From an uncultured virus (IMG/VR IMGVR_UViG_3300002835_000135) (lineage: Duplodnaviria > Heunggongvirae > Uroviricota > Caudoviricetes), in the IMG/VR virus record IMGVR_UViG_3300002835_000135: a stretch of 64,000 nt of DNA; one strand, 5' to 3'. Numbering within the stretch: position 1 is the stretch's first letter; each line of letters opens with the position of its first letter. Made by a program: the position numbers and the translations under genes. The notes beneath the pieces are model-generated. The model made no database searches. It saw only the letters and a program-made list of their open reading frames with translations, and was not told where the DNA came from. Positions 11,970 to 29,178 of the stretch are shown here, in pieces.

Positions 11970-12347
11970 TTATTGTATTTTATTAAAATCGGTAATTCCT
12001 AATTGTTTTCCATTAGAATCAAATAATCCAATTCTATATGCTGATGATGGTAAAGCACTAGTGTATACCTTTAAAAGATTGTCGCCAGCAACCACGTTTA
12101 AGGTTTCTTTTGAAACAACCCTATTTCCTATATCGAATATTTTAACCGTAACCGAACCTGCTGTTTCAGTTTTAACATTCATTGCCACTTCCGAGGTAAC
12201 AAATGCCGTTTGTAACTTAATACCCACCGAACTTGTCATCTTAAGTTCTTCAGATACTGATTGTGGTGTTGGCATAATATCATCTTTATAACAACCTGTT
12301 AAAACCACACATAATAATACTATTGTGAGAATTTTTTTCATTTTCAT
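11970..12347 (-). CDS. Lipoprotein resembling a T9SS type-A C-terminal sorting domain
   Basis: Lipobox LTGC; VKIFDIGNRVV...SALPSSAYRI pattern. Confidence 0.55.
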   Translation of the reverse strand: MKMKKILTIVLLCVVLTGCYKDDIMPTPQSVSEELKMTSSVGIKLQTAFVTSEVAMNVKTETAGSVTVKIFDIGNRVVSKETLNVVAGDNLLKVYTSALPSSAYRIGLFDSNGKQLGITDFNKIQ

Positions 12348-12352
12348 TAATT

Positions 12353-12694
12353 TTAGTTTATAATTATTTTTGTCTTTTTTAATTGGTTTTTATCTACATC
12401 CTCAAGTACTAGATATAAATATCCTTTAGGTAAAGAATTGGTATAAATCTTCTTAATATTTTCACCATTTTGCCCAATAAATTTTTCTCGGCTAACTACT
12501 TGATTCGTCGTTGCATCAATTAAGGTTAACATATAGGTTCCGGATGATGGTAAATCAAAATATATTGATTGACCATTTGTTACCTTACTTTCATCCACAT
12601 TGAATATCTTTTCAACCGGCATATCTGGTGTTGGTATTTCCACTTTTGAACATCCAGCTAATAAAATCAATGATATTAATATTATCTTCTTCAT
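12353..12694 (-). CDS. Lipoprotein resembling a T9SS type-A C-terminal sorting domain (paralog)
   Basis: Lipobox LAGC; LTLID..NQVV...NSLPKGYLYL...KIIIN. Confidence 0.55.
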   Translation of the reverse strand: MKKIILISLILLAGCSKVEIPTPDMPVEKIFNVDESKVTNGQSIYFDLPSSGTYMLTLIDATTNQVVSREKFIGQNGENIKKIYTNSLPKGYLYLVLEDVDKNQLKKTKIIIN

Positions 12695-13587
12695 TAGAAT
12701 TGAAAATTTGTTCCAATCATAAACATTATTGGGTTACTCTTTTTATATCCAACCGATTCACTTAGTTTATCCCAAGTTGTGTTATATCTGATATTAGTAT
12801 TTAACACAAATCTTTTAGTTATCTTCCAGTCAATAGATGTTCCATAATACAAATCCAAATTGAAATCATTTAGATATGCTAAATCAGACGCCGTTCCGTC
12901 TTTAAATACTTTATAGATATCACTCATTGCAAATATCTGTGGTGAGATGTTTACCCTCTTTGTTTTCAATGTATATGTGTACATCACCATACCTCTATAA
13001 CTCATTTCACTAGATGCTGGCATTTGTGGATATATTAAATCTTTAAAATCACCATTTTCATCTACCGTATATTTTCCTTCCCACTTACCAGGGTAAGTCC
13101 CCCAAAAAGATTTTGATGCGGTTAAACTATAACCAAACGTACCCCACTTCTTAGTTCTAAACACATCAATAAACGATAAGGTTACATCTTTTTGAAAATC
13201 AAAATCGGTTGAGTAAAATGTTTGTATTGTAGTTGTTCTTTTTTCTGAATTTCTACTGAGGCCATATCCCACGCCATAATAATTCCATATAGGATTTATG
13301 GATGCCGCATATGTATGTCCCCATTGTCCGCTCATAGATGATTTATGATACCCCAAATTAAGAGTAGTAGACACTTGCTTTCCTATTACACCTACTGAAA
13401 GGTTTGACGACGAAAGTACATCTTTTGAAAAATTAACATACGATTGTAATATACTCACATCGTTCCAATCATCACTTTCTCCAAATAGTTCTTTTGCCGA
13501 TAGTTGTAATGTATCTGGTTTTACAATTTGTGCGTTTGTAACAAATGTTATCGAAATTAGTGACAGAATTATTATTAGTTTTTTCAT
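12694..13587 (-). CDS. Outer-membrane beta-barrel-like protein
   Basis: Signal peptide; C-terminal Phe (GTNFQF). Confidence 0.6.
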   Translation of the reverse strand: MKKLIIILSLISITFVTNAQIVKPDTLQLSAKELFGESDDWNDVSILQSYVNFSKDVLSSSNLSVGVIGKQVSTTLNLGYHKSSMSGQWGHTYAASINPIWNYYGVGYGLSRNSEKRTTTIQTFYSTDFDFQKDVTLSFIDVFRTKKWGTFGYSLTASKSFWGTYPGKWEGKYTVDENGDFKDLIYPQMPASSEMSYRGMVMYTYTLKTKRVNISPQIFAMSDIYKVFKDGTASDLAYLNDFNLDLYYGTSIDWKITKRFVLNTNIRYNTTWDKLSESVGYKKSNPIMFMIGTNFQF

Positions 13588-15881
13588 CAGTTTATTTTTA
13601 CTTTTAATTGTGTTCCATTTTTATTAACGGCATCTGTTGTTGATACCGACGTCAACCCCAGCGTACCATTTAATCCTATTACAGGTAAGAATGTTACTTT
13701 ATATTCCGTTGTTTTATCCAATGTAGTTGAGCCGTCAGTTATCAACGAACCTAATGTTATTGATGAACCCCTATTAGTTCCAAAATTAGTTGGATTACCT
13801 TTTGTGGTAAATTCTACCTTTTCAAACTTTAAAGCGGTATTATCGTAGTTTAAATTGAATTGTGTACCAACTAATTCTTGTTGTAATGGGTCTACTGATA
13901 TTGTTACAACCAACTTACCACCAACATTTTCACCCATTAGATACGCGTTAATTTGATTAGAAACTGAATTAGTTGATAAACTCATTGTTCTTATTGAGTT
14001 TGTAGTAACACTACTTTGAGTTTGTTTTGCCGAATGAGATAAGTTTATATCACCTATCCAGGTCACGTTCACATTATATGTGTTATTAAGTGTCCCAGTG
14101 TTTAAACTAAACGGAAATAAACTTCTTGTGTTATTAAATTGTGTGCCCCAATTAGTTTTAGTAATCGCGTCATAATCAGATTTACTATAAAGTTTCATCA
14201 AATAAGTTAATGCAGAATATTGTGTAAGTGGTTGGACACCTGTCAAATATTGTAATAATTTATATGTATCCGCCTCATTGAAAATCCCATTACCATCCAC
14301 GTCTGCGTTCATATATTGAATACCAGAGGTGAATTCATTCCCACTTTCATTTCCAAATAAACCACCACTCGATAATTCCTTAAAAGCTATGAATACATCC
14401 GATACGGTTACAACACTATTATATAAGGTGTTTAAATCTGTTTGATTGGTGTATGATAAATCTATTCCGTGTTGTTTGTAATTTTGGGTTTGCGCGAATG
14501 TGTATTCAACCCTAACACCATACCAGCTATCTTGTGCCCTTATTTTCGATTGGTTGGTGGAATTAGTTATGTTACTTGAAATATTACCAGGTATTAAATA
14601 AGTAATCCAACTGCCAGCAGATCCTTGTTTAAATTCCACGGGTCCGTTATAAATGTCCAATAACTGAAGTGATGTAATACTTGAATAAGAAACTCCTGTT
14701 CCATCAAATTCTCTACTATCTACCAATAAAGTATGCCCACCTAATGTTGCATTATAACTATACAATATACACCATTCTACTTCGCCACCAGTCGTTGATG
14801 CTTTATATCCACCACTAAGTATTTTAGTAGTATCTAAATCGTTTGTAATATCAACTTTACCCAATCCACTTATCGCTCTCGATGTATTAGTTGTTGTACT
14901 CCATAGATTATTTACATATCTGTTCGCTTTTGCTGAGAATTTAGTTTCATCTACATTACCACCGAAATCAAAATTGAATCTAGCAGTTAGGACTTCTCCA
15001 TTTGAGTGGGTTACTGAATTGGTATAAAACTCCGTAAATGTTGCATCATCAGGGTTAGACCAAGTTCCATATTCAATTACATACGGATTTGAAAAATGGT
15101 TTGGTAAATCATTCCATTGAGAACCACCGCCCCATTTAGTTACTGCGTAATCTTCATCACCACTATTGTTTGGTTCACCACCTGCCCAGTTATTATATTG
15201 ACCTGGAATATTTCCGTTTGTTTGTCCGTTATTTATTTTGATAAGAGTTCCTTTTTCAGGTCCAGCATCTATCGTCCATCTAGCTTCACTTGCTTCATCC
15301 GTTAATGCAAACCAAATATTACCTTGAGGGACATTCGCAAATATAAAAGCATCTTCATCTGCCGAAGTGATTGTTACTAAATAACCCGTCTGTCCTTTGA
15401 ATGTGGTTAATAAAGATGCGGCTCTTGCGTTTGTGTATGTTGCCGTTGTTGTTATTGGTCTGTAAAAGTGACCGTTTACACCATTGTAATAATATCCCGT
15501 CGGGTTTATCGTTGCGGCTACTGATAATGCAACATTACCTCTTATCGAACCTGTATTTACTTTTAGGGACGCTAATGCGGTGTTGATATTAGACATTGTG
15601 CCCGTTACCACCAAACGAGTTTTATTGCCACTTAAAGTAAATCCACTTGCAGCAGTTAAACCTGTTGTTGTGTTTAATACAAATGTAGTACCTGATGGTG
15701 GGTTTACTAAACTGATTGACGCTAATAGGGTTGATGTCGTGCTAAATCCACTTAATACGAATCCACTTGCGTCTTGTCCGGTTGTAGACGGTATAAATGA
15801 TTTAGAGTCCGGAGCAGATACACTCTGTCCGAACCCTAAAACTGAAATTAGTAAAAAATATATTACTAATAATTTCTTCAT
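13587..15881 (-). CDS. Secreted protein: C-type lectin + dockerin-like + cohesin-like domains
   Basis: NWAGGEPNN...WND (CTL); ADVDGNGIFNEADTYKLLQY (dockerin/EF); GTQFNLNYD..ALKF (cohesin). Confidence 0.7.
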   Translation of the reverse strand: MKKLLVIYFLLISVLGFGQSVSAPDSKSFIPSTTGQDASGFVLSGFSTTSTLLASISLVNPPSGTTFVLNTTTGLTAASGFTLSGNKTRLVVTGTMSNINTALASLKVNTGSIRGNVALSVAATINPTGYYYNGVNGHFYRPITTTATYTNARAASLLTTFKGQTGYLVTITSADEDAFIFANVPQGNIWFALTDEASEARWTIDAGPEKGTLIKINNGQTNGNIPGQYNNWAGGEPNNSGDEDYAVTKWGGGSQWNDLPNHFSNPYVIEYGTWSNPDDATFTEFYTNSVTHSNGEVLTARFNFDFGGNVDETKFSAKANRYVNNLWSTTTNTSRAISGLGKVDITNDLDTTKILSGGYKASTTGGEVEWCILYSYNATLGGHTLLVDSREFDGTGVSYSSITSLQLLDIYNGPVEFKQGSAGSWITYLIPGNISSNITNSTNQSKIRAQDSWYGVRVEYTFAQTQNYKQHGIDLSYTNQTDLNTLYNSVVTVSDVFIAFKELSSGGLFGNESGNEFTSGIQYMNADVDGNGIFNEADTYKLLQYLTGVQPLTQYSALTYLMKLYSKSDYDAITKTNWGTQFNNTRSLFPFSLNTGTLNNTYNVNVTWIGDINLSHSAKQTQSSVTTNSIRTMSLSTNSVSNQINAYLMGENVGGKLVVTISVDPLQQELVGTQFNLNYDNTALKFEKVEFTTKGNPTNFGTNRGSSITLGSLITDGSTTLDKTTEYKVTFLPVIGLNGTLGLTSVSTTDAVNKNGTQLKVKIN

Positions 15882-15882
15882 A

Positions 15883-17535
15883 TTATTCGACGATTAAATC
15901 AACTTTATTTCCTTTCGCGTCAACAGCATCAGATAAAACAAAGTAGAATAAACCGGCGGTATTTGTTAAAGTTGTTTTTGGTGTGAAAATTAATTTGTAC
16001 GGAGTACCAACTTTAATTCTAGCACTTTTTAATTGATCCATAGAACCAAATGTTAATCTACCATTTTCGTGTGTTGAAAAGTTAGTAACACTAGAGCCCG
16101 CATCAAATATTATGTTGTCTAATGTTAATTTAGATTCATCATAATTCATAATTACCTGTAAACCCGCCAATTCTGCTTTTGTTAATGTGGTTGTTAATAC
16201 AACTTTACCATTTTCTAATGCTGAAGATACTCCCAATTTAGCCGTTTCAACTGCTGCTGTTTGATATGCCATTTGTGTTGATATACTCATGGTTTTCAAT
16301 GCATTTACCTCACCATTTATTGAGTTAGTGTATATTCCAGAACTTATTCTACTAGCAATCACCGACGGATCTGATGAATGTGACCAGTTTAAGTCGCCAC
16401 CCCAGGCAAATACTGCGTGAACTTCTTTTATTGGAGTATCAATTAATACCCTATTCTTAACCACGCCATCTAACCAGCTCTGATTTAATAATCCACTATA
16501 CCACCTTACGGATGTTGAAGTATTGGTTGGAATCATTGCGGTTGTTGACATGTTTTGTCCCATTACATGTGCAAATAAAGCGTATGAATCTGCTTCACCA
16601 AATGCGTTTGTGTTAAGTGTAACCTTACCAACTTTCTTTTCTAATGCTGGTAATGTAAAATAATTTGCGGTTCCACTAATATCTGTTTGTGAATGCCCCA
16701 AGAATGCTTTATAAGCATCAGATACCGTTACAATGTTATTCATCCATGCTTTAGTCATTGCGGGGCTAACAAATACACCAACAGAATCACCCACTTTAAC
16801 TTGTGTGGTAAATAACACTTCACCACTAGCATCTAATGGTAATTGTGCAATAGGTTGTTGCGTCCAATCAATATCTCCGCTACCATCTGATTTTAATTTC
16901 ATCAATTGGATATTATGGTCGGTAATGGTATATCCTTGTGGAAAAAGAACTTTTACTTTAAATTGTGATGTGTTACCAACTACACCAGTTAGAGATGACC
17001 AACCACTACCATATATTGTTCCAACATTAGTACCGTCTGTGTCCGTACCTGTAGCTAAATCTAATCTAAAAATATTATTATAGCTGTTCTGATCCTTTAA
17101 TATGTATTTTTGAGTTGCAATTAAATCTGTGATTGAAGCATCTGCTCTTTGAACTGTCAACTGCCCAGCATTCCAATCAGCATTTGCCGAATAAGCCCAA
17201 GGTGTTAACCCATATTGAACGTTTAAATTGTTATCACTTGTGCCACTATTTGGTGTGAATTTATAGTTATTCCAACCAGTGTAGAATGTTTGTGATGATG
17301 TTCCTTGATTAAACACTGTTGAAACATATGTCAATGCTTTATTGTTGTGTTGATATCTAAACCAAAGATAACGAGGGTTCTTAATTACTGTTCCCTTTGT
17401 TAATGTATACTTAACAGTAATAGTATCACCAACCTTTAAACCAGATGCTGGGGTTAATGATTGACTGATTGTTAATTGACCAAAAGATGTAATAGCGACT
17501 AATAGGAAAATGCCGATAAATAATAGTTTTTTCAT
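15883..17535 (-). CDS. Secreted protein with degenerate dockerin and cohesin-like domain; partial paralog of the neighbour
   Basis: Shared VTVSD..AF, EAD.Y, W.GD.N.SHS; GLQVIMNYDESKL. Confidence 0.6.
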   Translation of the reverse strand: MKKLLFIGIFLLVAITSFGQLTISQSLTPASGLKVGDTITVKYTLTKGTVIKNPRYLWFRYQHNNKALTYVSTVFNQGTSSQTFYTGWNNYKFTPNSGTSDNNLNVQYGLTPWAYSANADWNAGQLTVQRADASITDLIATQKYILKDQNSYNNIFRLDLATGTDTDGTNVGTIYGSGWSSLTGVVGNTSQFKVKVLFPQGYTITDHNIQLMKLKSDGSGDIDWTQQPIAQLPLDASGEVLFTTQVKVGDSVGVFVSPAMTKAWMNNIVTVSDAYKAFLGHSQTDISGTANYFTLPALEKKVGKVTLNTNAFGEADSYALFAHVMGQNMSTTAMIPTNTSTSVRWYSGLLNQSWLDGVVKNRVLIDTPIKEVHAVFAWGGDLNWSHSSDPSVIASRISSGIYTNSINGEVNALKTMSISTQMAYQTAAVETAKLGVSSALENGKVVLTTTLTKAELAGLQVIMNYDESKLTLDNIIFDAGSSVTNFSTHENGRLTFGSMDQLKSARIKVGTPYKLIFTPKTTLTNTAGLFYFVLSDAVDAKGNKVDLIVE

Positions 17536-18071
17536 TTTTTAGTTGTTAATAATTTATTAATTAATGTTTCACAAGTTTTCTTAGTGGCGGAAGAAAGTGC
17601 TTGTTGATTTATTTTACCACTACCCTCATCAGTTATTAAAGTTGATGTTGATATTTCGGTGCTAGATTCCTCTGCGACCGCTTCTTTTATTTTTTTACCA
17701 TTTTTATCACTTAGTGTACCCCTCATAGTTACTAGAGTTTCCTCAACGTCCGAATGGAATACTGAAATGTTTCTTTTTGTTCTGTTTACATCAAAAAACA
17801 AAATTTCAACATTCAAAACATAATCAGCGTTTTCTAACGACTCAACAATCGCAAAATCTTTATCTTGTAAGATTTCTTGGAAAATGTTTTTACACCCAAA
17901 TGCCAAGTTTTTATTAGCCGTTAGTCGACCTATTTTAATTTTGTTCTCAACACTAGCTACATATACATTTTTTTGTTGTGGCGTTCTATTATCCGTAAAC
18001 GGGATTAATAACAAAAAAAGGCACAATAATGGTAGTAACGATACATACAAACTGCCGGAATTATATTTCAT
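17532..18071 (-). CDS. Membrane-anchored/secreted protein, CsgG/LptE-like fold possible
   Basis: N-terminal hydrophobic segment; ADYVLNVEI. Confidence 0.5.
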   Translation of the reverse strand: MKYNSGSLYVSLLPLLCLFLLLIPFTDNRTPQQKNVYVASVENKIKIGRLTANKNLAFGCKNIFQEILQDKDFAIVESLENADYVLNVEILFFDVNRTKRNISVFHSDVEETLVTMRGTLSDKNGKKIKEAVAEESSTEISTSTLITDEGSGKINQQALSSATKKTCETLINKLLTTKK

Positions 18072-18254
18072 ATCAATAAATACTCGGCAAGGCAACTTAG
18101 GTATATATATTGCCGGAAAATTGCCCGAAATATGTTATAATATAATATATGTTTAACACCCCTTATCAGACCTTATTGGGAATACTTTACACATTATTTG
18201 GTTTTTGCTTTACATTTTATAAAAATCGTTTTACCTTTAATAAAAAATAGAGAT

Positions 18255-19037
18255 ATGTCAAATTTTAAACATCTTAGTGACTTAGAAGTCCAGCAAATTA
18301 CATTTGACTGGAGACATCGCGGATTTACTGTTTTAGAGTTATTAACCGAGAATGAATGTGATGAAATAAACGAGGAATTGAATAGGTTAAGAAACGAAAG
18401 AACCGGTACCGAAGCGCCAGACGGTAAAACATGGGGCGAGTGGGACCCATTTGCTTATCCGCATAAACTTTCAGATAAATTGGCGAAACTATTTGCGCAC
18501 CCTAAAGTATTGGAAGCCGTGGAGTTTTTAATGGAAGGTGAAATCCAGGGTATGCAAAGTTGGTGTTATTTTAAACCGCCAGGACAATTAGGTAGAGACC
18601 AACATCAAAATGCGTTTTATACAAAATGTGGTCATAACGAAATTATTAACACTGCATTAGCATTAGATAATCATGACCCAGAAAATGGTGCTGTGTGGAA
18701 CTATGAGGGTTCTCATCGTTTACCAGTATTACCAATTGAGGTGGATGAGGAACGAACAAAAACAAACCCAGCGTTTTGGAGTAATGAAAGAGGTAAACCA
18801 TGTGTAATGCCTGAAGGACACGACTTCCGTAAGGTGGAAGGTTACTTAAGAAAAGGTCAAGTGGTGTTACTGCACTCGCATTGTGTTCACGGATCAGAAG
18901 CAAATAACTCAAATAGAATGAGAAGAAACTTCTTAGGTGGTTATCTTAAAAAAGGCGCTAATTTCTCAAAAGGTGGACATATGAAACGCGAACCAATTGA
19001 TATGTATGAATTAAGAAAAAACCACTGGGGTGAGTAA
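18255..19037 (+). CDS. Phytanoyl-CoA dioxygenase (PhyH)-family 2OG-Fe(II) oxygenase
   Basis: FKPPG, HQN, ALD...ENG...GSH, HGSEAN.S..RR; start moved to MSNF. Confidence 0.85.
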   Translation: MSNFKHLSDLEVQQITFDWRHRGFTVLELLTENECDEINEELNRLRNERTGTEAPDGKTWGEWDPFAYPHKLSDKLAKLFAHPKVLEAVEFLMEGEIQGMQSWCYFKPPGQLGRDQHQNAFYTKCGHNEIINTALALDNHDPENGAVWNYEGSHRLPVLPIEVDEERTKTNPAFWSNERGKPCVMPEGHDFRKVEGYLRKGQVVLLHSHCVHGSEANNSNRMRRNFLGGYLKKGANFSKGGHMKREPIDMYELRKNHWGE

Positions 19038-19074
19038 TTTTTAAACTTTTCTTTATTTTACGAATACTTATTAG

Positions 19075-19082
19075 TATCTTTG
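19075..19082 (+). promoter_or_regulatory. Bacteroidota-type -7 promoter element upstream of leader 1
   Basis: TATCTTTG matches TAnnTTTG. Confidence 0.6.
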
Positions 19083-19111
19083 CAAAAAGATTTAAACATT
19101 AAACAAATTCA

Positions 19112-19210
19112 ATGAGACAACAAAAACATACAATGTCGTTTATTATCTGCTCAAAATGGGCGGATGAGCGCGCTATGTCCATATGTCTCGATGATACTGA
19201 TGTCGGTTAA
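19112..19210 (+). CDS. Leader peptide 1 (32 aa), putative attenuator of tRNA array 1
   Basis: MRQQKHTMSFIICSKWADERAMSICLDDTDVG; codons match array-1 tRNAs; followed by a terminator. Confidence 0.8.
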   Translation: MRQQKHTMSFIICSKWADERAMSICLDDTDVG

Positions 19211-19349: not shown

Positions 19350-19419
19350 GGGCCGGATGTCAATGGCAGACCACCTGATTTGCAATCAGAGTGAAAGGGT
19401 TCGATTCCCTACGTGTCCA
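19350..19419 (+). tRNA. tRNA-Ala(UGC), acceptor stem imperfect
   Basis: Loop TT-TGC-AA, G3:U70, A73, GTTCGA; two acceptor mismatches. Confidence 0.65.
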
Positions 19420-19426
19420 CAGAAAT

Positions 19427-19500
19427 TGAAATATAGCTCAGTTGGTTAGAGCGTCATCCTGATACGGTGAATGTCGATGGTTCGAGTCCATCTATTTCAA
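19427..19500 (+). tRNA. tRNA-Ile(GAU)
   Basis: Cloverleaf, CT-GAT-AC. Confidence 0.9.
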
Positions 19501-19505
19501 CATTT

Positions 19506-19578
19506 GGAACTTTTGTATAGCTGGTGCGTACGTCGGACTGAAAATCCGAAGGAACAAGTTCGATTCTTGTAGGTTCCA
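19506..19578 (+). tRNA. tRNA-Phe(GAA)
   Basis: Cloverleaf, CT-GAA-AA. Confidence 0.9.
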
Positions 19579-19584
19579 CATAAT

Positions 19585-19658
19585 GACCTCGTAGCTCAGT
19601 TGGTTAGAGCACATCACTTTTAATGATGGGGCCGACAGTTCGAATCTGTCCGGGGTCA
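19585..19658 (+). tRNA. tRNA-Lys(UUU)
   Basis: Cloverleaf, CT-TTT-AA. Confidence 0.92.
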
Positions 19659-19663
19659 CACAC

Positions 19664-19734
19664 GCGGGTATGGTGCAACGGCAGCATACGGGTCTCCAAA
19701 ACCCTCGATGGGAGTTCGAATCTCTCTACCCGTG
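19664..19734 (+). tRNA. tRNA-Trp(CCA)
   Basis: Cloverleaf, CT-CCA-AA, G73. Confidence 0.9.
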
Positions 19735-19741
19735 CAAATAA

Positions 19742-19813
19742 GGTCTCTTGGTGTAACGGATAGCACGAAACACTACGGATGTTTTGGTAAAGGTTCGAAT
19801 CCTTTAGAGACCT
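19742..19813 (+). tRNA. tRNA-Arg(ACG)
   Basis: Cloverleaf, CT-ACG-GA. Confidence 0.9.
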
Positions 19814-19868
19814 CGATGTTCACAAAAGTTGCTTGTTCACGGTTCGTGAACAGAGAACAAAAGTGAAC

Positions 19869-19960
19869 AACACCGCCAAAGTCGGAAGTAAAACACCGCC
19901 AAAGTCGGAAGTAAAACACCGCCAAAGTCGGAAGTAAAACACCGCCAAAGTCGGAAGTAA
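19869..19960. repeat. Perfect tandem repeat, 4 x 23 bp
   Basis: AACACCGCCAAAGTCGGAAGTAA x4, no spacers. Confidence 0.95.
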
Positions 19961-19963
19961 TTA

Positions 19964-20034
19964 GTCAGGTTGGCCGAGTGGCTAGGCAGAGGTCTGCAAA
20001 ACCTCGTACATTGGTTCGAATCCAATACCTGACT
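19964..20034 (+). tRNA. tRNA-Cys(GCA)
   Basis: Cloverleaf, CT-GCA-AA, U73. Confidence 0.92.
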
Positions 20035-20036
20035 CT

Positions 20037-20113
20037 GTGATTGATGCTCGTATGGTAGAGCACTAGCTTGTGGCGCTAGAATAAAGCGAGTTCGAATCTC
20101 GTCAATCACCCCA
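20037..20113 (+). tRNA. tRNA-His(GUG)
   Basis: TT-GTG-GC loop, C73, encoded CCA. Confidence 0.88.
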
Positions 20114-20116
20114 TAT

Positions 20117-20184
20117 TGCGGGGAGAATGGTTTCCCACCGGTCTCATAAGCCGAGTGTTCCAGGTTCGACTCCTGGCCCCGCAA
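20117..20184 (+). tRNA. tRNA-Met(CAU) with shortened D arm
   Basis: TGCGGGG/CCCCGCA acceptor, CT-CAT-AA, GTTCGA. Confidence 0.75.
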
Positions 20185-20195
20185 CAAAAATGTAT

Positions 20196-20226
20196 TTTGA
20201 ATTTTAAAAAATTTAATTTATATTTG
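20196..20226 (+). promoter_or_regulatory. Bacteroidota-type promoter inside array 1
   Basis: TTTG-N19-TATATTTG. Confidence 0.6.
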
Positions 20227-20227
20227 T

Positions 20228-20416
20228 ATAACAGGTGACGACGGTGGTGAAACCCCACTGTCTATAAATCTCAACACCCGCCTTGATTCGCGGTATTATA
20301 GCGGTGAGAGTAGAGTTACTACAAGTCGGGAATAATTACCCCAATGACGAAAGTGTAGCCACCAACGTAGGGATATGTTGGTTATGATGTACGAATGGGT
20401 GCGAAAAACTTGTTAT
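20228..20416 (+). ncRNA. Unassigned structured RNA (~190 nt)
   Basis: Closing stem ATAACAGGT/ACTTGTTAT with several internal hairpins; no ORF. Confidence 0.5.
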
Positions 20417-20422
20417 TTTTTT

Positions 20423-20499
20423 TTGATACTAACTCAACGAGGACTTTGTCAACCAGAGCTATGACTCGGATGGTGCAACTTAAGGTGAGTTAGAATCAA
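20423..20499 (+). ncRNA. Unassigned structured RNA (~75 nt)
   Basis: Closing stem TTGATACTAACTCA/TGAGTTAGAATCAA. Confidence 0.4.
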
Positions 20500-20503
20500 T
20501 TTT

Positions 20504-20577
20504 GGATTGTTGGTGAAGTTGGTTATCATGCTACCCTGTCACGGTAGAGTTCACGGGTTCGAGTCCCGTACAGTCCG
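20504..20577 (+). tRNA. tRNA-Asp(GUC)
   Basis: Cloverleaf, CT-GTC-AC, G73. Confidence 0.92.
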
Positions 20578-20580
20578 CAA

Positions 20581-20671
20581 ATCATATCTTCAGGTACCCA
20601 TACAGCGGTGAGATGGGCTAAGTTAGATACAATTCCTCGGAGCTGGGAGTAGAATGTCTGTTTGATGTGAT
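20581..20671 (+). ncRNA. Unassigned structured RNA (~90 nt)
   Basis: Closing stem ATCATATC/GATGTGAT with two internal hairpins. Confidence 0.4.
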
Positions 20672-20676
20672 AATTT

Positions 20677-20762
20677 GGAGAGATGGCAGAGTTGGTCTAT
20701 CGCGTCGGTCTTGAAAACCGAAGTTCTGAAAGGAACCGTGGGTTCGAATCCTACTCTCTCCG
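20677..20762 (+). tRNA. tRNA-Ser(UGA)
   Basis: Long variable arm, CT-TGA-AA, G73. Confidence 0.93.
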
Positions 20763-20963
20763 CACGATTCGTTTAGTCGTCGAATAATATGCCCAATATG
20801 ATGAGAAACGGTTTGACAACCGTATGGGAACGTACATAGACGTATAGGAATAACGTCTGGGTTTATCAGCCCGACCTCGTGAGGACGAAATGATTATTCC
20901 TAACCTGACATTTGTCGGGGACAACTAAGGCACCTGTAAGCTGGATAAATTATGGTGTCACTT

Positions 20964-21035
20964 GCTCAGTTCGACTAAGGGTTAGGTCACCTCCCTTTCA
21001 CGGAGGTAATACGGGTTCGAATCCCGTACTGAGTA
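20964..21035 (+). tRNA. tRNA-Glu(UUC)
   Basis: Cloverleaf, CT-TTC-AC. Confidence 0.9.
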
Positions 21036-21113
21036 CAATCTTTTTATATATTAAACTATTGATTCCCAATATTTTATTTTGTATTTTTACCATATTATTA
21101 ATATTTATAATAT

Positions 21114-21416
21114 ATGATAGATAAAATCACATTATCGTTAATGTTATTTTTTAACACATTAACATCCTCTATCGACCCAAGTTTTTCCGACGAAAGAAAG
21201 ACCTACAATCAAATTAAAAAAGAGATTAAAGCTCTTGAAAGAAAAATTGAATGGGTTGAAGCAACAGATGATAATTACGCTAGCAGGGCCGTCAAAACCA
21301 AAGAAATCACGGACGAGATTACCAAATTGAATGGTAAAATTGTAAAGATTGAGAAGGTTGTTATTTTAAAAGATAAGTGGGCTAAGGAAGATTCCTTAAC
21401 CAAATCAAAAAAATGA
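21114..21416 (+). CDS. Hypothetical coiled-coil protein with N-terminal hydrophobic segment
   Basis: 100-aa ORF after TATTTATA. Confidence 0.6.
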   Translation: MIDKITLSLMLFFNTLTSSIDPSFSDERKTYNQIKKEIKALERKIEWVEATDDNYASRAVKTKEITDEITKLNGKIVKIEKVVILKDKWAKEDSLTKSKK

Positions 21417-21862
21417 AAAAAATTATTTTAATGCTAACGTTACTTTTGGGAGTGGAAGTCGTGGCAAATGGACAAGAGTGGTTTATAACCGCCACTCGAA
21501 AAGGTGGTCCATCAGATGGTTATATAACAGGTGCTTTTATGAAGAAAGGTTGGGGATTCTATGCTGGTCTTCCATATGGCGAATTGGGTGGTCAAAACGG
21601 TGGAATTGTAATTCCCCCTGGTGTCAACACCAAAACAGGAAACGTATCCGATAACATGAAGTTTGGTGTTCTTAGACAAGTAAAAGAGGACAAAGCGATT
21701 GTTGGGTTTGGATTACAACCAACACTTAATGGAAATAAACCTAATTTTCTTATAATGTACAATCCACTTAGACCAAGTAGTGTTATAAATCTATGGACAA
21801 TTGGAAATATAATTGGTGATGATTTCACATTAGGGCTTGGATTATCATATAAAGTGAAATAA
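21413..21862 (+). CDS. Secreted small beta-barrel-like protein
   Basis: Signal peptide; GLGLSYKVK end. Confidence 0.55.
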   Translation: MKKIILMLTLLLGVEVVANGQEWFITATRKGGPSDGYITGAFMKKGWGFYAGLPYGELGGQNGGIVIPPGVNTKTGNVSDNMKFGVLRQVKEDKAIVGFGLQPTLNGNKPNFLIMYNPLRPSSVINLWTIGNIIGDDFTLGLGLSYKVK

Positions 21863-21887
21863 TTTTATTAACTATTGATAATTTTAA

Positions 21888-21895
21888 TATATTTG
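21888..21895 (+). promoter_or_regulatory. Bacteroidota-type -7 promoter element upstream of leader 2
   Basis: TATATTTG. Confidence 0.6.
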
Positions 21896-21913
21896 CATAT
21901 ACTTATTAAAACG

Positions 21914-22021
21914 ATGAAGAATATAAATAACATATCAACGAGTACGAGACCCCTTAATAATGGTAATGGGTATGGTGTGCAACCGTTATGTTACATATGT
22001 TCGGATATCAATAAAGGATAA
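21914..22021 (+). CDS. Leader peptide 2 (35 aa), putative attenuator of tRNA array 2
   Basis: MKNINNISTSTRPLNNGNGYGVQPLCYICSDINKG; codons match array-2 tRNAs; followed by a terminator. Confidence 0.8.
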   Translation: MKNINNISTSTRPLNNGNGYGVQPLCYICSDINKG

Positions 22022-22044
22022 ATAAATTTTTTAAACTAATATCG

Positions 22045-22077
22045 AGACCCGAACAACTAAAAATGTTCGGGTTTTTT
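22045..22077 (+). terminator. Intrinsic terminator between leader 2 and tRNA array 2
   Basis: AGACCCGAACA-actaaaaa-TGTTCGGGTTT + T run. Confidence 0.88.
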
Positions 22078-22097
22078 GTTTTACAATTTATTATCTT

Positions 22098-22123
22098 TAT
22101 ATTTGAAAAGGAGTTCTTTGACA
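22098..22123 (+). promoter_or_regulatory. Possible -7 promoter element plus boxA-like antitermination site
   Basis: TATATTTG then GTTCTTTGACA. Confidence 0.5.
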
Positions 22124-22138
22124 TATTGAGAAAGAAAT

Positions 22139-22223
22139 GCTCGAGTGGTGTAATGGTAGCCACGAGGGACTTAAAATCCCTTGGACAGAAACGTCCGTGC
22201 CGGTTCGAGTCCGGCCTCGAGTA
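22139..22223 (+). tRNA. tRNA-Leu(UAA)
   Basis: Long variable arm, CT-TAA-AA. Confidence 0.93.
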
Positions 22224-22224
22224 C

Positions 22225-22334
22225 AATGTAATGACCTAGTAATAGGTGACGGAACAGACGCTATGTATGAAATGGAAACTTTTGAAGCGCGTACAAAGGT
22301 GCTGATTAGATACAAACCGTACAGACATTACATT
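22225..22334 (+). ncRNA. Unassigned structured RNA (~110 nt)
   Basis: Closing stem AATGTAATG/CATTACATT; internal ACCTA-gtaa-TAGGT hairpin. Confidence 0.45.
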
Positions 22335-22339
22335 AAATT

Positions 22340-22413
22340 GGTTCCATAGCTCAATTGGATAGAGCACAATCCTTCTAAGATTGGGGTTTCAGGTTCGATC
22401 CCTGATGGGATCA
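22340..22413 (+). tRNA. tRNA-Arg(UCU)
   Basis: Cloverleaf, CT-TCT-AA. Confidence 0.92.
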
Positions 22414-22421
22414 CAATAAAT

Positions 22422-22496
22422 AGGGTAATGGACTAATGGCTAAGTCACTTGCTTTGGGAGCAAGGCATCATGGAGGTTCGAGTCCTCTTTACCCTA
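22422..22496 (+). tRNA. tRNA-Pro(UGG)
   Basis: Cloverleaf, TT-TGG-GA. Confidence 0.9.
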
Positions 22497-22501
22497 CAAT
22501 C

Positions 22502-22574
22502 GCTTTCTTAGCTCAGTTGGTAGAGCACATCACTGTTAATGATGGAGTCGGGGGATCGTGACCCTCAGGGAGCG
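22502..22574 (+). tRNA. tRNA-Asn(GUU)
   Basis: Cloverleaf, CT-GTT-AA; variant T loop GATCG. Confidence 0.85.
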
Positions 22575-22581
22575 CAATAAT

Positions 22582-22662
22582 GGCCGAGTGGTGTAATGGG
22601 AGCCACGCTAGTTTTAGGCACTAGTGTCGAAAGACGTGAGAGTTCGAATCTCTCCTTGGTCA
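22582..22662 (+). tRNA. tRNA-Leu(UAG)
   Basis: Variable arm, TT-TAG-GC. Confidence 0.92.
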
Positions 22663-22667
22663 CATAT

Positions 22668-22748
22668 TGGGATATCGCATAGTGGCAATTGCGGCTGACT
22701 GTAAATCAGCTCTCTTTGAGTTCGGCGGTTCGAGTCCGTCTATCCCAA
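22668..22748 (+). tRNA. tRNA-Tyr(GUA)
   Basis: Variable arm, CT-GTA-AA. Confidence 0.92.
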
Positions 22749-22872
22749 CATAAAAATATGAATAGAGAACAATATTTACAAGAAACTTTTCCAACTAAAG
22801 ACGGAAAAACTTACATCCAATCATTAGATGAATTTAATTCAAAAAAAGAGGAAGATGTAAAAGAAGATACAT

Positions 22873-22986
22873 GCCGGAGTGGCGGAATAAACAACGATGC
22901 TGACGAGTAATGTTGAGACGTGTCGCATTCTAGAAGATGAGTACTCCGAAAGGACCTCGTGGAGGTAATCAATCCTTTCTCCGGCA
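22873..22986 (+). ncRNA. Enlarged tRNA-Leu-like RNA with D-loop hairpin insert and broken anticodon arm
   Basis: GCCGGAG/CTCCGGC-A acceptor, TGGCGGAA..AGACG D arm, variable hairpin, non-canonical T loop. Confidence 0.6.
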
Positions 22987-23041
22987 CCTATTAATCGTCA
23001 ATATAGACGATAACAGATTTTATCGTTAGATTAAACGATAT

Positions 23042-23115
23042 GGACTTATAGCTCAGATGGTTAGAGCAGGTCGCTCATAACGACAAGGTCACAGGTTCGA
23101 ATCCTGTTTGGTCCA
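23042..23115 (+). tRNA. tRNA-Ile2(CAU), lysidine type reading AUA
   Basis: CT-CAT-AA; GGACTTA-TAGCTCAG...GGTCC-A body resembles bacterial Ile2 rather than Met. Confidence 0.75.
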
Positions 23116-23120
23116 CACAT

Positions 23121-23193
23121 AGAAGATTAGCTCAGTTGGGAGAGCGCTTGTTTTACATGCAAGATGTCACTGGTTCGATTCCGGTATCTTCTA
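23121..23193 (+). tRNA. tRNA-Val(UAC)
   Basis: Cloverleaf, TT-TAC-AT. Confidence 0.9.
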
Positions 23194-23199
23194 CAATAA

Positions 23200-23271
23200 G
23201 CTCCTAAAGCATTGCAGGCGATGCGCATGACTTGTAATCATGATAACTTGGTTCGATTCCGAGTGGGAGCT
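23200..23271 (+). tRNA. tRNA-Thr(UGU)
   Basis: Cloverleaf, CT-TGT-AA. Confidence 0.88.
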
Positions 23272-23325
23272 CATGGGACTCCGATGGAAGTCCGCAAGAA
23301 GAATAGATGTTTTTCATCCATCAAA

Positions 23326-23398
23326 GCGAGTATAGTATAATGGCTTATTATGCCTTCCTTCCAAGTAGGATATGTCAGTTCGATTCTGACTACTCGCT
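23326..23398 (+). tRNA. tRNA-Gly(UCC)
   Basis: Cloverleaf, CT-TCC-AA, U73. Confidence 0.9.
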
Positions 23399-23461
23399 CA
23401 ATCATCAAAGAGACCGCTAAATCGAGTTAGTGAAAATCTACATTCTCAATGATGATTAAAT

Positions 23462-23532
23462 TGTCCTTTGGTGTAACGGTAGCACAACTGTTTTTGGTGC
23501 AGTTTGTTTAGGTTCGAATCCTAGAGGGACAA
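23462..23532 (+). tRNA. tRNA-Gln(UUG)
   Basis: U1:A72, TT-TTG-GT. Confidence 0.9.
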
Positions 23533-23536
23533 CAAT

Positions 23537-23622
23537 GGAGAGTTACCCAAGTTGGTGAAGGGGGCAGTTTGCTAAACTGTTAGGTCGTTTGCGGCGCAAG
23601 GGTTCGAGTCCCTTACTCTCCG
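23537..23622 (+). tRNA. tRNA-Ser(GCU)
   Basis: Long variable arm, TT-GCT-AA, G73. Confidence 0.92.
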
Positions 23623-23637
23623 CAGTAAAAGTACCCT

Positions 23638-24243: not shown

Positions 24244-24414
24244 TGTCAGGTGTTGAAATTTGATTGGTACGCGTATCAATCTAGGCAGACAAGCGCTCCT
24301 GTCTCGAGCGTGGTGACAAAGAAATAGGTAATTAATATGGGGTAGACCACCAAGCCGGCCGGCAGATGTTAATTACTGAATCTCACCGTGGTGGTTCGAG
24401 TCCATCCCTGACAG
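24244..24414 (+). ncRNA. Giant (171 nt) tRNA-like RNA with expanded D loop and variable region
   Basis: TGTCAGG/CCTGACA-G acceptor; CGCTC-ctgtctc-GAGCG arm; GGTGG-TTCGAGT-CCATC T arm. Confidence 0.7.
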
Positions 24415-24444: not shown

Positions 24445-24906
24445 ATGAAAAAATTTAGAACTCTCTATGGAACTCCAATTCCAGATGCTATTGAATACAT
24501 CAGAGAGTACATCTCAACAAGAGAGAATGTGGAAATTCTTATCGGTTCTGACTCACAATGTTACGGAAATAAAAAAACAATCTTTGGTGTTGTTGTTGCA
24601 TTATATACTAAAGGTAAAGGCGCTCACGTGTTATGTACGCGTGAAACATTACCTATGGAACATAACACACCTTCGCGTTTACTAGGTGAAGTTTGGAAAT
24701 CTTTAGAGATGGCTGAATTTTTAAAAGAAAATGGTTTACCTAAACCAACCTGGATTGATATAGACCTTAATCCAGACCCAAAATACAAATCAAACTCAGT
24801 TCTTAGACAAGCTGTTGGTATGGTTGAAGGTATGGGTTACAAGGTAAGGTATAAGCACGTTGGGGCATTAATGACTTATGCTGCAAATCATTTAGTTAGG
24901 TTATAG
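24445..24906 (+). CDS. RNase H-like YkuK (DUF458) family protein
   Basis: IGSDSQ, RL..EV.KS, IDIDLN, YAANH. Confidence 0.8.
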   Translation: MKKFRTLYGTPIPDAIEYIREYISTRENVEILIGSDSQCYGNKKTIFGVVVALYTKGKGAHVLCTRETLPMEHNTPSRLLGEVWKSLEMAEFLKENGLPKPTWIDIDLNPDPKYKSNSVLRQAVGMVEGMGYKVRYKHVGALMTYAANHLVRL

Positions 24907-26042: not shown

Positions 26043-26075
26043 TATCTTTGCAAAAGAAATAAATTAGTTCTTTGA
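26043..26075 (+). promoter_or_regulatory. -7 promoter element and boxA-like site before the large ncRNA
   Basis: TATCTTTG (26043-50), GTTCTTTGA (26067-75). Confidence 0.55.
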
Positions 26076-26085
26076 TTTAAAAATA

Positions 26086-26885
26086 TTGGCCGCCTATGGT
26101 CAACAAAATAAACCATGAAAGTGGGATAAAGTGGTCTGGTTTGGTTAAATCAGATTGCGGTTTCAGCAATGGAACTTGAGTAGGCAAACAGAATATCATT
26201 GAACCTTAATTACTGAGGGTAACACTGTAGGGAAAGTGGTTCGATGATCAAGCAATCCGAGTTGTTTGGTTGAGGTGGGAACACCAATAAGAATAATCTG
26301 TAGAGTTATTACAAGAAGTAGGATTTCCAATCTTACAATTGTGTGATTCAATATGATGGGAATCTTAAAACCGAAAGGTATGGTGAAGTACGAGTGGTGT
26401 CGTTATCATCCTTAATTAAACTCTACCAAGGGTTTAGTTTTGAAGGGGTCCAAAAATATGGTAGCAGGGATGTTACAGAGAGTAGTTTAGTATCGGGTCG
26501 TTCAAAAGATGACTTGGCTGGCAGATGGGCCGCTACTTTCCAAATTCGGAACCAACTCAATTGTTAATTCAGGTTTAACAACTTAAAAAACAAGGAAAAG
26601 TGCCCATCAGTCGTTGGAGACAGGTGACTACACAGTCGAGAGGGGTTCTCGGCCATGAAGGGTCCCAAGCCCAACATGATTTTTAAGAAAGTTCTCTAAT
26701 CCCGCAAGGATGCGTTGGGGTGGCAACCTCGAAGAGTAATGAGTATTAAAAGAGTATTCGACGACTAAAGGATTGGTTAATCTAATTGACCGTCACTGAT
26801 TGGTACTACTCAAAAGGTAGTGGATAAGAGAAGAAAAGATAATGTCTCTAAAGTCAATCGCTAAATGGTGTAATCTCAGCCCTTT
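26086..26885 (+). ncRNA. Large structured ncRNA, probably GOLLD
   Basis: ~800 nt without a credible ORF, many GNRA-capped hairpins, tRNA-array context; 3' end ...GTAATCTCAG recalled from GOLLD RNAs. Confidence 0.7.
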
Positions 26886-28765: not shown

Positions 28766-29176
28766 GGGGGTGCCTGGCATTGATTTCAGGTATCGGGAAT
28801 AAATGGCACGTAGTCAGAATTCATCTATGACTTAAATCTACGGTGAAACAATTCAAACGGCAACGTTTACAACAACATGGAAATTGCAGGTTTACTTGCA
28901 ACTTCCAAAGTAGCTGCCTAACCAAGTTAGGTACTACAATCGGGTCGACGAGCATGTAACCTAGGAACAGAAGCTCTTAAGGTGTGATTTCTACCCAAAA
29001 AGAAATAAACGGTCTTGTTCAGAGGGCTACCGTAACAAAAGTGAACTCGACACAGTTGTTGGTAACGATGTCAAAATAGGAACCAAATATTTGTCAGTTG
29101 TGAACTAATTGAATAAACGTGTAGTCATTTATTGTTGAGCAGGAAAGACACGGGTTCGAGTCCCGTCACCTCCACC
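28766..29176 (+). ncRNA. ssrA: tmRNA; predicted tag (A)GNVYNNMEIAGLLATSKVAA
   Basis: GGGGGTG/CACCTCC-A acceptor with G3:U, T arm GGGTTCGAGTCCC, internal ORF 28859-28921 ending AA-stop. Confidence 0.92.
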
Positions 29177-29178
29177 TT

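Follow-up and report, generated by a model that had tools for sequence, protein, structure and literature searches.

This locus raises the question of what a 171-nt, tRNA-shaped RNA with inserted domains, encoded beside a large tRNA array, could do for a phage. The window, that is, the whole stretch of 64,000 nucleotides analyzed here, is part of a 71.7-kb virus record, and window positions are used throughout. A previous examination of the letters without database searches (hereafter, the sequence-only reading) took the element for a tRNA mimic, for example, a decoy for anticodon nucleases or a protein scaffold. The element is a phage-borne version of a tRNA-shaped RNA gene of Bacteroidota, and the reading that we prefer, with a probability of roughly 0.55, is that the RNA would be a carrier that takes no part in decoding, receives Asp, has it amidated to Asn by GatCAB and stands in for asparagine synthetase. 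The relevant features are as follows:

19427..23623, plus strand: 22 ordinary tRNA genes in an array that shares the strand of the RNA
24244..24414, plus strand: the whole tRNA-shaped RNA gene, 171 nt, folding into a tRNA frame (positions 1-73)
24244..24250, plus strand: 5' strand of the acceptor stem, with U1, G2 and U3; 7 of 7 positions paired with 24407-24413
24253..24292, plus strand: D arm of the tRNA-Leu type (class II), with a 3-bp stem, A14-A15, G18-G19 and C20-A20a, matching the D arm of an ordinary phage tRNA-Leu
24262..24281, plus strand: optional hairpin inserted at D-loop positions 16-17, from the fold and the family counts
24294..24310, plus strand: anticodon arm; loop CUGUCUC at 24299-24305, with GUC at 24301-24303, U37 at 24304 and C38 at 24305
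24311..24389, plus strand: variable arm, 79 nt, delineated by covariation
24312-24316/24383-24387, plus strand: basal stem of the variable arm
24323-24326/24378-24380, plus strand: conserved A-rich internal loop of the variable arm, with two A's (24379-24380) invariant in 56 diverse sequences
24328-24338/24366-24376, plus strand: long stem of the variable arm, followed by a junction with two hairpins
24339..24351, plus strand: conserved hairpin in the distal part of the variable arm, with the motif GG..GACCA, which is present in 147 of 239 sequences among the matches listed
24354..24363, plus strand: perfect 10-nt palindrome with a self-complementary loop, the predicted homodimer contact
24390..24406, plus strand: T arm, with G49-C65, G50-U64 and U51-A63
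24407..24414, plus strand: 3' strand of the acceptor stem, with A72 (24413) and the discriminator G73 (24414)
24445..24906, plus strand: RNase H-like (YkuK) gene (PF04308, E 1e-17), starting 30 nt downstream of the RNA

Re-reading of 24244-24414 recovered all the stems and arms that the sequence-only reading had listed: the RNA has the 7/5 stems of a cloverleaf, G18-G19 and a canonical T loop. Two of its dimensions needed correction: the D-loop hairpin is present at 24262-24281 but consists of 8 bp with a CGCG loop, not 9 bp with a 2-nt loop, and the variable region is branched as described but measures 79 nt, not about 75. CCA is not encoded (C-T-A follows G73) and would be added after trimming. 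ARAGORN finds no tRNA at 24244-24414; the Rfam search that the sequence-only reading had proposed, run at the gathering score and at E values up to 10, produced no tRNA-clan or other meaningful match over the RNA; and blastn against 50,697 phage records returned T-arm fragments only, none covering more than 18% of the query. The single-sequence fold modestly beats shuffled sequences (z = -2.16; 8 of 200 shuffles were equally good), so that the reality of the structure rests on covariation.

Family patterns were built from the D and anticodon arms. The scan of viral sequences was complete and gave 34 loci; at least 120 metagenomic loci (about 400 estimated) and at least 124 loci in bacterial genomes (about 910 estimated) were listed. 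Altogether, 274 of the 310 listed matches parse as cloverleaves, yielding 239 distinct sequences of 108-196 nt; the 36 that did not parse (chance matches or cut contigs) were dropped before the family counts. The parser required a paired acceptor stem and UG at positions 8-9 and left the letters at positions 1-3 and 73 free. Almost all bacterial-genome matches listed come from Cytophagales, Saprospiraceae, Chitinophagales and Flavobacteriales, and include cultured, harmless strains (Algoriphagus, Spirosoma, Cyclobacterium, Flectobacillus). The pattern matches outside Bacteroidota (L338, L350, L390, L408) and the taxonomically unplaced L401 do not match the family model and were discarded as chance.

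The family covaries. In 56 diverse sequences, 24 of the 31 pairs change on both sides, a count reached in none of 500 shuffles, and the proposed pairs are 91.6% paired compared with 50-58% for slid-pairing controls. The distal, phage-type variable arm covaries too; in the 239 sequences from the matches listed, acceptor pairs 4-7 covary, while pairs 1-3 are near fixed. The selection on structure that had been surmised from intact stems is thereby borne out, and the 171-nt cloverleaf is confirmed as real. The window RNA scores 116.6 bits against the covariance model, by construction. No Rfam family and no annotated phage homologue matches the family, and the open-access main texts searched yielded no description of it; the window RNA belongs to a new, uncatalogued RNA family of Bacteroidota chromosomes and their phages. 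A family missed by both ARAGORN and Rfam needs cataloguing even if the mechanism proposed here is wrong.

Within the matches listed, the variable arm ranges from 39 to 127 nt, the T stem is bulged in 45 of the 239 sequences, and pair 51-63 is never G-C in the 194 unbulged members. The D-loop hairpin occurs in 12 of 28 viral, 24 of 91 metagenomic and 0 of 119 bacterial-genome distinct sequences (pattern-found, among the matches listed), with one shorter D-loop insert in the model-found locus L522; from this distribution, it appears to be an optional phage addition. Another feature of the phage clade is a palindrome of at least 10 nt, centered on GGCC or UGCA and found in 49 of 50 phage-type sequences, which are related to one another, whereas shuffling predicts 8.9 with a palindrome of at least 8 nt. 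Such palindromes are not general (at least 8 nt in 50 of the 189 other members, against 33 expected). The phage-clade palindrome suggests that the RNA may form a homodimer. When co-folded with itself, the window RNA gives -127.7 vs -108.2 kcal/mol, via exchange of strands within the stems of the acceptor and the D insert; the predicted dimer pairing thus lies elsewhere than the palindrome, and co-folding was dropped as support for a palindrome contact. Separately, degenerate or GAU-loop partial tandem copies lie just upstream of the main intact copy at L354, L391 and L412, suggesting frequent duplication. A long-armed tRNA-like gene with the loop CUAGGUA (L103 208-327) scores 44 bits against the family model and is probably a different oddity.

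Four RNA runs contain parts of the window region. In three of these, from three studies, contigs of 155-158 nt span 24255/6-24410/2 with 0-1 differences and cross both inserts with no gap, joint or loose end; run X2 has no contig over the RNA and is uninformative either way. The protein-coding stretch 12000-19160 is almost uncovered by RNA contigs, and the GOLLD RNA and tmRNA of the window are covered. At the level of contigs, which give no strand, ends or level, the window RNA is a discrete, unspliced transcript. Removal of the inserts to give a normal tRNA, which the sequence-only reading had named as an outcome that would speak against a mimic, is therefore not what the three runs display. 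An intron-containing tRNA was rejected, given that the contigs retain the inserts; they are still compatible with a minor spliced form.

The covariance model, built from homologs as the sequence-only reading had suggested, was run on 150 genomes of the class of G001, the genome chosen as the center. Members scoring 91-139 bits were found in 26 of these, roughly one sixth of the genomes sampled from this class, compared with at most 60 bits for ordinary tRNA-Leu; in an earlier phylum-wide pattern sample, the RNA was present in 17 of 241 genomes, all 17 gatB-positive. One further member, at L524 1501-1576, is 76 nt long, with a short variable loop and the anticodon AUC; it scores 71 bits, sits in genome G159, which has asnA, and is possibly a minimal or derived form of the family.

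Examination of the fixed positions points to particular enzymes. In the pattern-found set, among the matches listed, G73 and G2-C71 are present in 239 of 239 sequences, U1-A72 in 235 and U3-A70 in 234; in the best copies from the 26 model-found genomes, U1-A72 and G2-C71 occur in 26 of 26 and U3-A70 in 25, whereas in the anticodon loop and at the discriminator, U35, C36, C38 and G73 are each found in 26 of 26 and G34 in 25. Passages of PMC9976931 give the Asp identity set as G73, G34, U35, C36 and C38, with G2-C71 minor, and state that amidation requires U1-A72 and is blocked by G1-C72 and by U20a. The window RNA itself holds all five Asp marks, and, by these criteria, the fixed set is the Asp identity set combined with the GatCAB determinant. 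A scan of viral sequences blind to the anticodon loop produced 44 matches, of which 33 are family members, all with GUC and C38; 32 have the loop CUGUCUC, and the divergent L469 has CAGUCCC, changed at both 33 and 37. Some lineages do replace anticodon letters: AUC is present in L524 and in all three copies of G219, and UUC, a Glu-type anticodon, in both copies of G139. The variant copies of G139 and G219 (loci L650 1570-1900, L647 and L648) keep U1-A72, C38 and G73, with asnC opposite.

Positions required by the ribosome behave differently. Position 37 in the 26 best copies is U in 20, G in 5, C in 1 and A in none, in agreement with the earlier remark that the pyrimidine there (U37 in the window RNA) sets the element apart from a working tRNA-Asp; U33 is lost in 4 of the 26, and pair 51-63 is A-U in all of them. 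All 22 ordinary tRNAs of the window have U33 and a purine at 37. Thus, the positions read by the synthetase are fixed, whereas those needed by the ribosome drift. An unusual but working tRNA-Asp isoacceptor, for which one could cite the full 7/5 cloverleaf, G18-G19, the canonical T loop, GUC and the G37 of 5 of the 26 copies, is hardly credible: no copy has A37, 4 of 26 copies as well as L469 have lost U33, the T stem is bulged in 45 of 239 sequences among the matches listed, and the phage already has a normal tRNA-Asp(GUC), with G1-C72 and A37, at 20504 (the array also includes a tRNA-Asn at 22502). Furthermore, U1-A72 would expose such an isoacceptor to GatCAB and hence to misreading as Asn; a true tRNA-Asp carries G1-C72, which prevents amidation. 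Compared with tRNA-Asp(GUC) (Rfam RF00005), the family shares G73, G34, U35, C36, C38 and G2-C71, and differs by U1-A72, the lack of A37, the mostly missing G10, the Leu-type D arm and the giant variable arm. The description as a mimic rather than a working tRNA-Asp is accordingly upheld by the family covariation and by the identity and loop counts.

Several marks run against a charged and amidated carrier. Only 4 of the 26 best copies have G10, one of the determinants for Asp in bacteria (the window RNA has U10), and the family lacks G1-C72, a pair said in passages of PMC9976931 to help position the 3' end in E. coli AspRS; G34 is replaced in some lineages. The D loop is of class II, with A20a in 26 of 26 best copies and, in phages, the added hairpin, and a supernumerary D-loop base is rejected by GatCAB according to a passage in PMC2330236. 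The relevant passages differ, one naming U20a (PMC9976931) and the other any supernumerary base (PMC2330236), and the members carry A20a, not U20a.

The family does not belong to any of the known classes with which it was compared, namely tRNA-Asp, tRNA-Asn, tRNA-Leu, tRNA-Ser/allo-tRNA, YrlA and T4 RNA C/D. C36 in 26 of 26 copies distinguishes it from tRNA-Asn, which has GUU (U36). The nearest neighbor under the family model is tRNA-Leu (up to 60 bits), which has a near-identical D arm, A15-U48, A20a, a variable arm starting with U44-G45 and a long arm; unlike tRNA-Leu, the family has G73 instead of A73, an Asp anticodon and an arm two to four times longer. With the allo-tRNAs and selC* tRNAs, it shares a long variable arm, G73 and GUC, which is among their common anticodons, but these have 8/4 or 9/3 stems, diverse anticodons and Ser or Ala identity and come from other phyla, as far as described in the texts of PMC5389517 and PMC7609411, whereas the family has 7/5 stems and a fixed Asp set; the string 'Bacteroid' does not occur in the main texts of these two papers. 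Membership in tRNA-Ser/allo-tRNA was rejected on A72, U11-A24 and the 7/5 stems. The Y RNA YrlA, T4 RNA C/D and GOLLD are likewise tRNA-like or tRNA-array-associated noncoding RNAs of bacteria or phages. YrlA, however, has a closed acceptor loop and a Ro60 partner in the account given in PMC4201824, whereas the acceptor stem of the family is open, and no TROVE/Ro60 gene was found among the 27 neighbor clusters scanned. T4 RNA C/D, invoked earlier as loose precedents, are not supported as relatives, the family model giving no match in the T4 region (L209). GOLLD, reported in part of PMC12286853 to form RNA-only oligomers, is a separate gene 2 kb downstream of the RNA in the window. Resemblances to a hammerhead, a T-box, an anti-Shine-Dalgarno sequence and a tetraloop receptor were considered by eye and dropped.

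Another line of evidence comes from the enzymes encoded in the 150 genomes. All 26 RNA-positive genomes have gatB, as do 85 of the 124 without the RNA, and asnA or asnB is present in 0 of 26 and 22 of 124, respectively; gatA and asnS are each found in 26 of 26 RNA-positive genomes. The RNA occurs in 14 of the 15 genomes with stand-alone GatB and GlnRS, where, GlnRS being present, GatCAB has no glutamine job, compared with 12 of 92 with GatB and without GlnRS, and it is missing from all 39 that lack GatB and from all 4 in which GatB is fused to a second AspRS; the Fisher tests of these associations ignore kinship, and many of the genomes are incomplete assemblies. The tallies include one unpublished genome, G317 (RNA-negative, gatB-positive), on which alone no claim rests. 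Bacteroidetes are listed with AsnRS, GlnRS and GatCAB but no Asn synthetase in a part of PMC4206432. The one exception in the GlnRS group, G175, has gatA, gatB, glnS and asnS, and neither the RNA nor an asnC-like gene, asnA or asnB was found in it. Most of the 80 RNA-negative genomes that have GatB but not GlnRS also lack asnA and asnB, and therefore obtain Asn in some other way.

The RNA-positive genomes are not one clade: on a quick AspRS tree of 56 rows, for which the careful search was unfinished, the RNA label requires 14 changes, at least 8 of them forced. The genomes with both GlnRS and the RNA fall in about six places on this tree, and G021 (asnB-positive, gatB-negative, RNA-negative) is sister to two RNA-positive genomes. 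The GatB-AspRS fusions (L605 2762-6121, L606 2438-5767, L656 and L658) are about 1110-1120 aa long and lie downstream of gatA-like genes; domains were scanned in two of the four, and the other two were recognized separately. The genomes with fusions also keep a stand-alone AspRS and have neither the RNA nor an asnC-like gene. A His at a candidate AspRS site, which we take to be the mark of a non-discriminating enzyme (a rule that we did not find in the papers searched), is present in 4 of 4 fused domains and 0 of 61 stand-alone enzymes. This site shows no separation between RNA-positive and RNA-negative genomes, and AspRS type was rejected as a separator. Loss of U1-A72 from host tRNA-Asn was likewise considered and proved wrong: of ten RNA-positive genomes searched, nine could be parsed, and 9 of 9 keep this pair, so that the classical tRNA-dependent route may still be open to these hosts.

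In cells, the RNA is linked by position to a regulator. Of the 26 model-found loci, 22 have a gene of the Lrp family head-to-head with the RNA, and what lies on the other side varies; the remaining 4 RNA-positive genomes carry an AsnC-like gene elsewhere, so that all 26 have one, compared with only 4 of 36 RNA-negative genomes tested. The same arrangement is seen in 46 of 112 pattern-found genome loci (among the matches listed; about 40 have short flanks). The best NCBIfam match of the regulator is AsnC, at 161-194 bits in 5 of 5 proteins, with the next family at 91 or less; all five fall below the cut-off of the AsnC equivalog NF008384 (227 bits), although AsnC is the best family by more than 70 bits. 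Among PDB entries, E. coli AsnC (2CG4) is the best match (143 vs 79 bits), and the stretch YTTG-YSIF is common to both. When an upstream-motif profile trained on asnC-adjacent loci is applied to 50 other loci, 30 exceed the 95th percentile set by 159 AT-rich control boxes; short flanks in many of these 50 may conceal an adjacent asnC, and the controls are not established as promoters, so that the shared motif is no more than a hint. In E. coli, asnC and asnA presumably lie head-to-head, as do asnC and the RNA here. According to a part of PMC4482635, AsnC of E. coli turns on asnA except when asparagine is present. In 10 of the 14 RNA-negative loci L528-L541, a Pfam search of 13 neighbor ORFs did not reveal asnC facing asnA or asnB; no RNA copy is present in any of the 14.

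The route that we propose would start with AsnC turning the RNA gene on when asparagine is low, followed by maturation by RNase P, 3' trimming and CCA addition. Host AspRS would charge the RNA through G73, U35, C36, C38 and G34, and GatCAB would amidate the Asp-RNA through U1-A72. The loop without A37 and often without U33, a T stem that is bulged or has an A-U-type pair at 51-63, and the giant arm would keep the RNA off the ribosome, so that Asp codons are not misread as Asn. Hydrolysis would then set Asn free, although no release factor was identified, and AsnRS would load it onto tRNA-Asn. In the phage, the RNA would be transcribed with the tRNA array and thereby raise the asparagine supply for an Asn-rich proteome (6.85% Asn in window ORFs vs 4.31% at host loci, a crude comparison), and the phage-clade palindrome would likely dimerize the phage RNA. 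Tentatively, and at slightly less than even odds, the whole scenario can be put as follows: the RNA gene replaces asparagine synthetase, as a purpose-built Asp/Asn chimera on a tRNA-Leu frame that, with a discriminating AspRS and GatCAB, makes free Asn in asnA's place under AsnC; large phages would have taken it up as an RNA auxiliary metabolic gene whose product dimerizes.

In its mode of action, the family probably resembles the Asp-tRNA-Asn intermediate. In tRNA-dependent Asn synthesis, described in passages of PMC4206432 and PMC2330236 for Thermus, Deinococcus, S. aureus and Bdellovibrio, an AspRS of the non-discriminating type (ND-AspRS), tRNA-Asn and GatCAB are involved; the resemblance extends to the same enzymes in the genome, the absence of AsnA and AsnB, and U1-A72 and G73 on the carrier. 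Here, in contrast, the proposed carrier is not tRNA-Asn, having the C36 of an Asp anticodon, a class II body and an arm of 39-127 nt; it also seems unsuited to decoding, and a gene of its own, opposite asnC, encodes it. Our verdict is that the family would represent a new variety of the dedicated non-proteinogenic tRNAs, acting in transamidation. If so, this would be a third route to asparagine beside AsnA/AsnB and ND-AspRS/tRNA-Asn, with a dedicated noncoding RNA as the catalytic carrier; the retention of GatCAB by many Bacteroidota that have both GlnRS and AsnRS, a gap noted in a passage of PMC4206432, would then be explained, and the phage copy would be an auxiliary metabolic gene made of RNA. 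The retention of U1-A72 in host tRNA-Asn, genome G175, the asnA of G159 and the regulator scores below the cut-off count against the proposal.

Some of the same observations would fit a different role, in which the RNA binds AspRS and GatCAB and assembles, stabilizes or titrates the transamidosome on ordinary tRNA-Asn, without being the main source of Asn. Such a scaffold or regulator explains the co-occurrence and the identity marks equally, accommodates the U1-A72 of host tRNA-Asn and the G34 and G10 deviations, and would give a purpose to the conserved internal loop and hairpin of the giant arm, which a plain carrier would not need, and to the dimers suggested by the phage palindrome. We consider it unlikely, though still a serious competitor, because the stand-alone AspRSs lack the His of the fused enzymes, which, if the His rule holds, suggests that they do not charge tRNA-Asn, because, as in a true substrate, the discriminator G73 and the first three pairs of the acceptor are fixed, and because a 76-nt member without the giant arm exists.

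Carriage of Asp for amidation also has to be weighed against donation of an aminoacyl group, whereby Asp-RNA, or Ser-RNA by virtue of G73 and the long arm, would feed a tRNA-dependent transferase that modifies lipids, the cell wall or proteins. Against a Ser-RNA, U35, C36 and C38 are fixed although the anticodon plays no part in recognition by SerRS. The Ser marks C72 and C11-G24 fail as well, A72 being present in 236 and U11 in 229 of 239 sequences among the matches listed, even though G73, G2-C71, R4-Y69 and the large variable arm do overlap the Ser identity set given in a passage of PMC9976931. The precedent is the S. aureus non-proteinogenic tRNA-Gly, as described in the same source: this is also a dedicated tRNA gene apparently out of translation, with altered T-stem pairs implicated, but it donates glycine to peptidoglycan, is of normal size and has no regulator link (PMC9976931). 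No transferase gene recurs beside the RNA in the neighbor clusters scanned, and a donor role leaves the tie to asnC, gatA and gatB unexplained; we regard it as distinctly improbable.

In phages, the RNA is an associate of tRNA arrays, with a tRNA within 1 kb in 32 of 35 viral loci (duplicates included), and ARAGORN misses it in 35 of 35. This location, together with the extra hairpins and palindromes that are mostly missing from cellular copies, would fit a role of at least the phage copies as decoys against anticodon nucleases or other tRNA-targeting defense. Yet most members are chromosomal genes at housekeeping loci, the phage copies keep the cellular set of U1-A72, G73, GUC and C38, and no defense gene recurs among the 27 commonest neighbor clusters scanned. 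A decoy is very unlikely, and as the main role, put forward in the sequence-only reading, it does not hold for a family that is chiefly chromosomal in Bacteroidota and tied to an AsnC-like regulator and GatCAB. The YkuK gene was correctly placed directly downstream, 30 nt away, but the implied link fails: YkuK lies near the RNA in 11 of 35 viral, 5 of 99 metagenomic and 0 of 112 bacterial-genome loci (the latter two among the matches listed). It was rejected as a functional partner and is a bystander.

The surroundings of the RNA contain several other elements. By reading, the window tRNA-Asn (22501-22574) has G1-C72, so that GatCAB would not act on it, in contrast to the products of most tRNA-Asn genes of hosts. 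The sequence TAnnTTTG, which we take to be a Bacteroidota promoter box, was tried as a host marker and is uninformative in the window (102 sites vs 105 expected). A GOLLD RNA lies at about 26050-26882 (Rfam, 318 bits at 26478-26882); in all four runs, very deep RNA contigs also cover about 400 nt upstream of the Rfam match, which probably represent the 5' half of a complete GOLLD, a part that the Rfam model leaves out. A phage tmRNA at 28766-29177 (Rfam, 83.9 bits) was missed by ARAGORN and is covered by RNA contigs. Two weak tRNA-like genes, found by Rfam only, lie at 20117-20184 and 19350-19419 (33.4 and 29.7 bits) and have shortened D arms and loops centered on CAU and GCA, and, by eye, four tandem copies of a 21-nt unit are present within the tRNA array at about 19870-19960.
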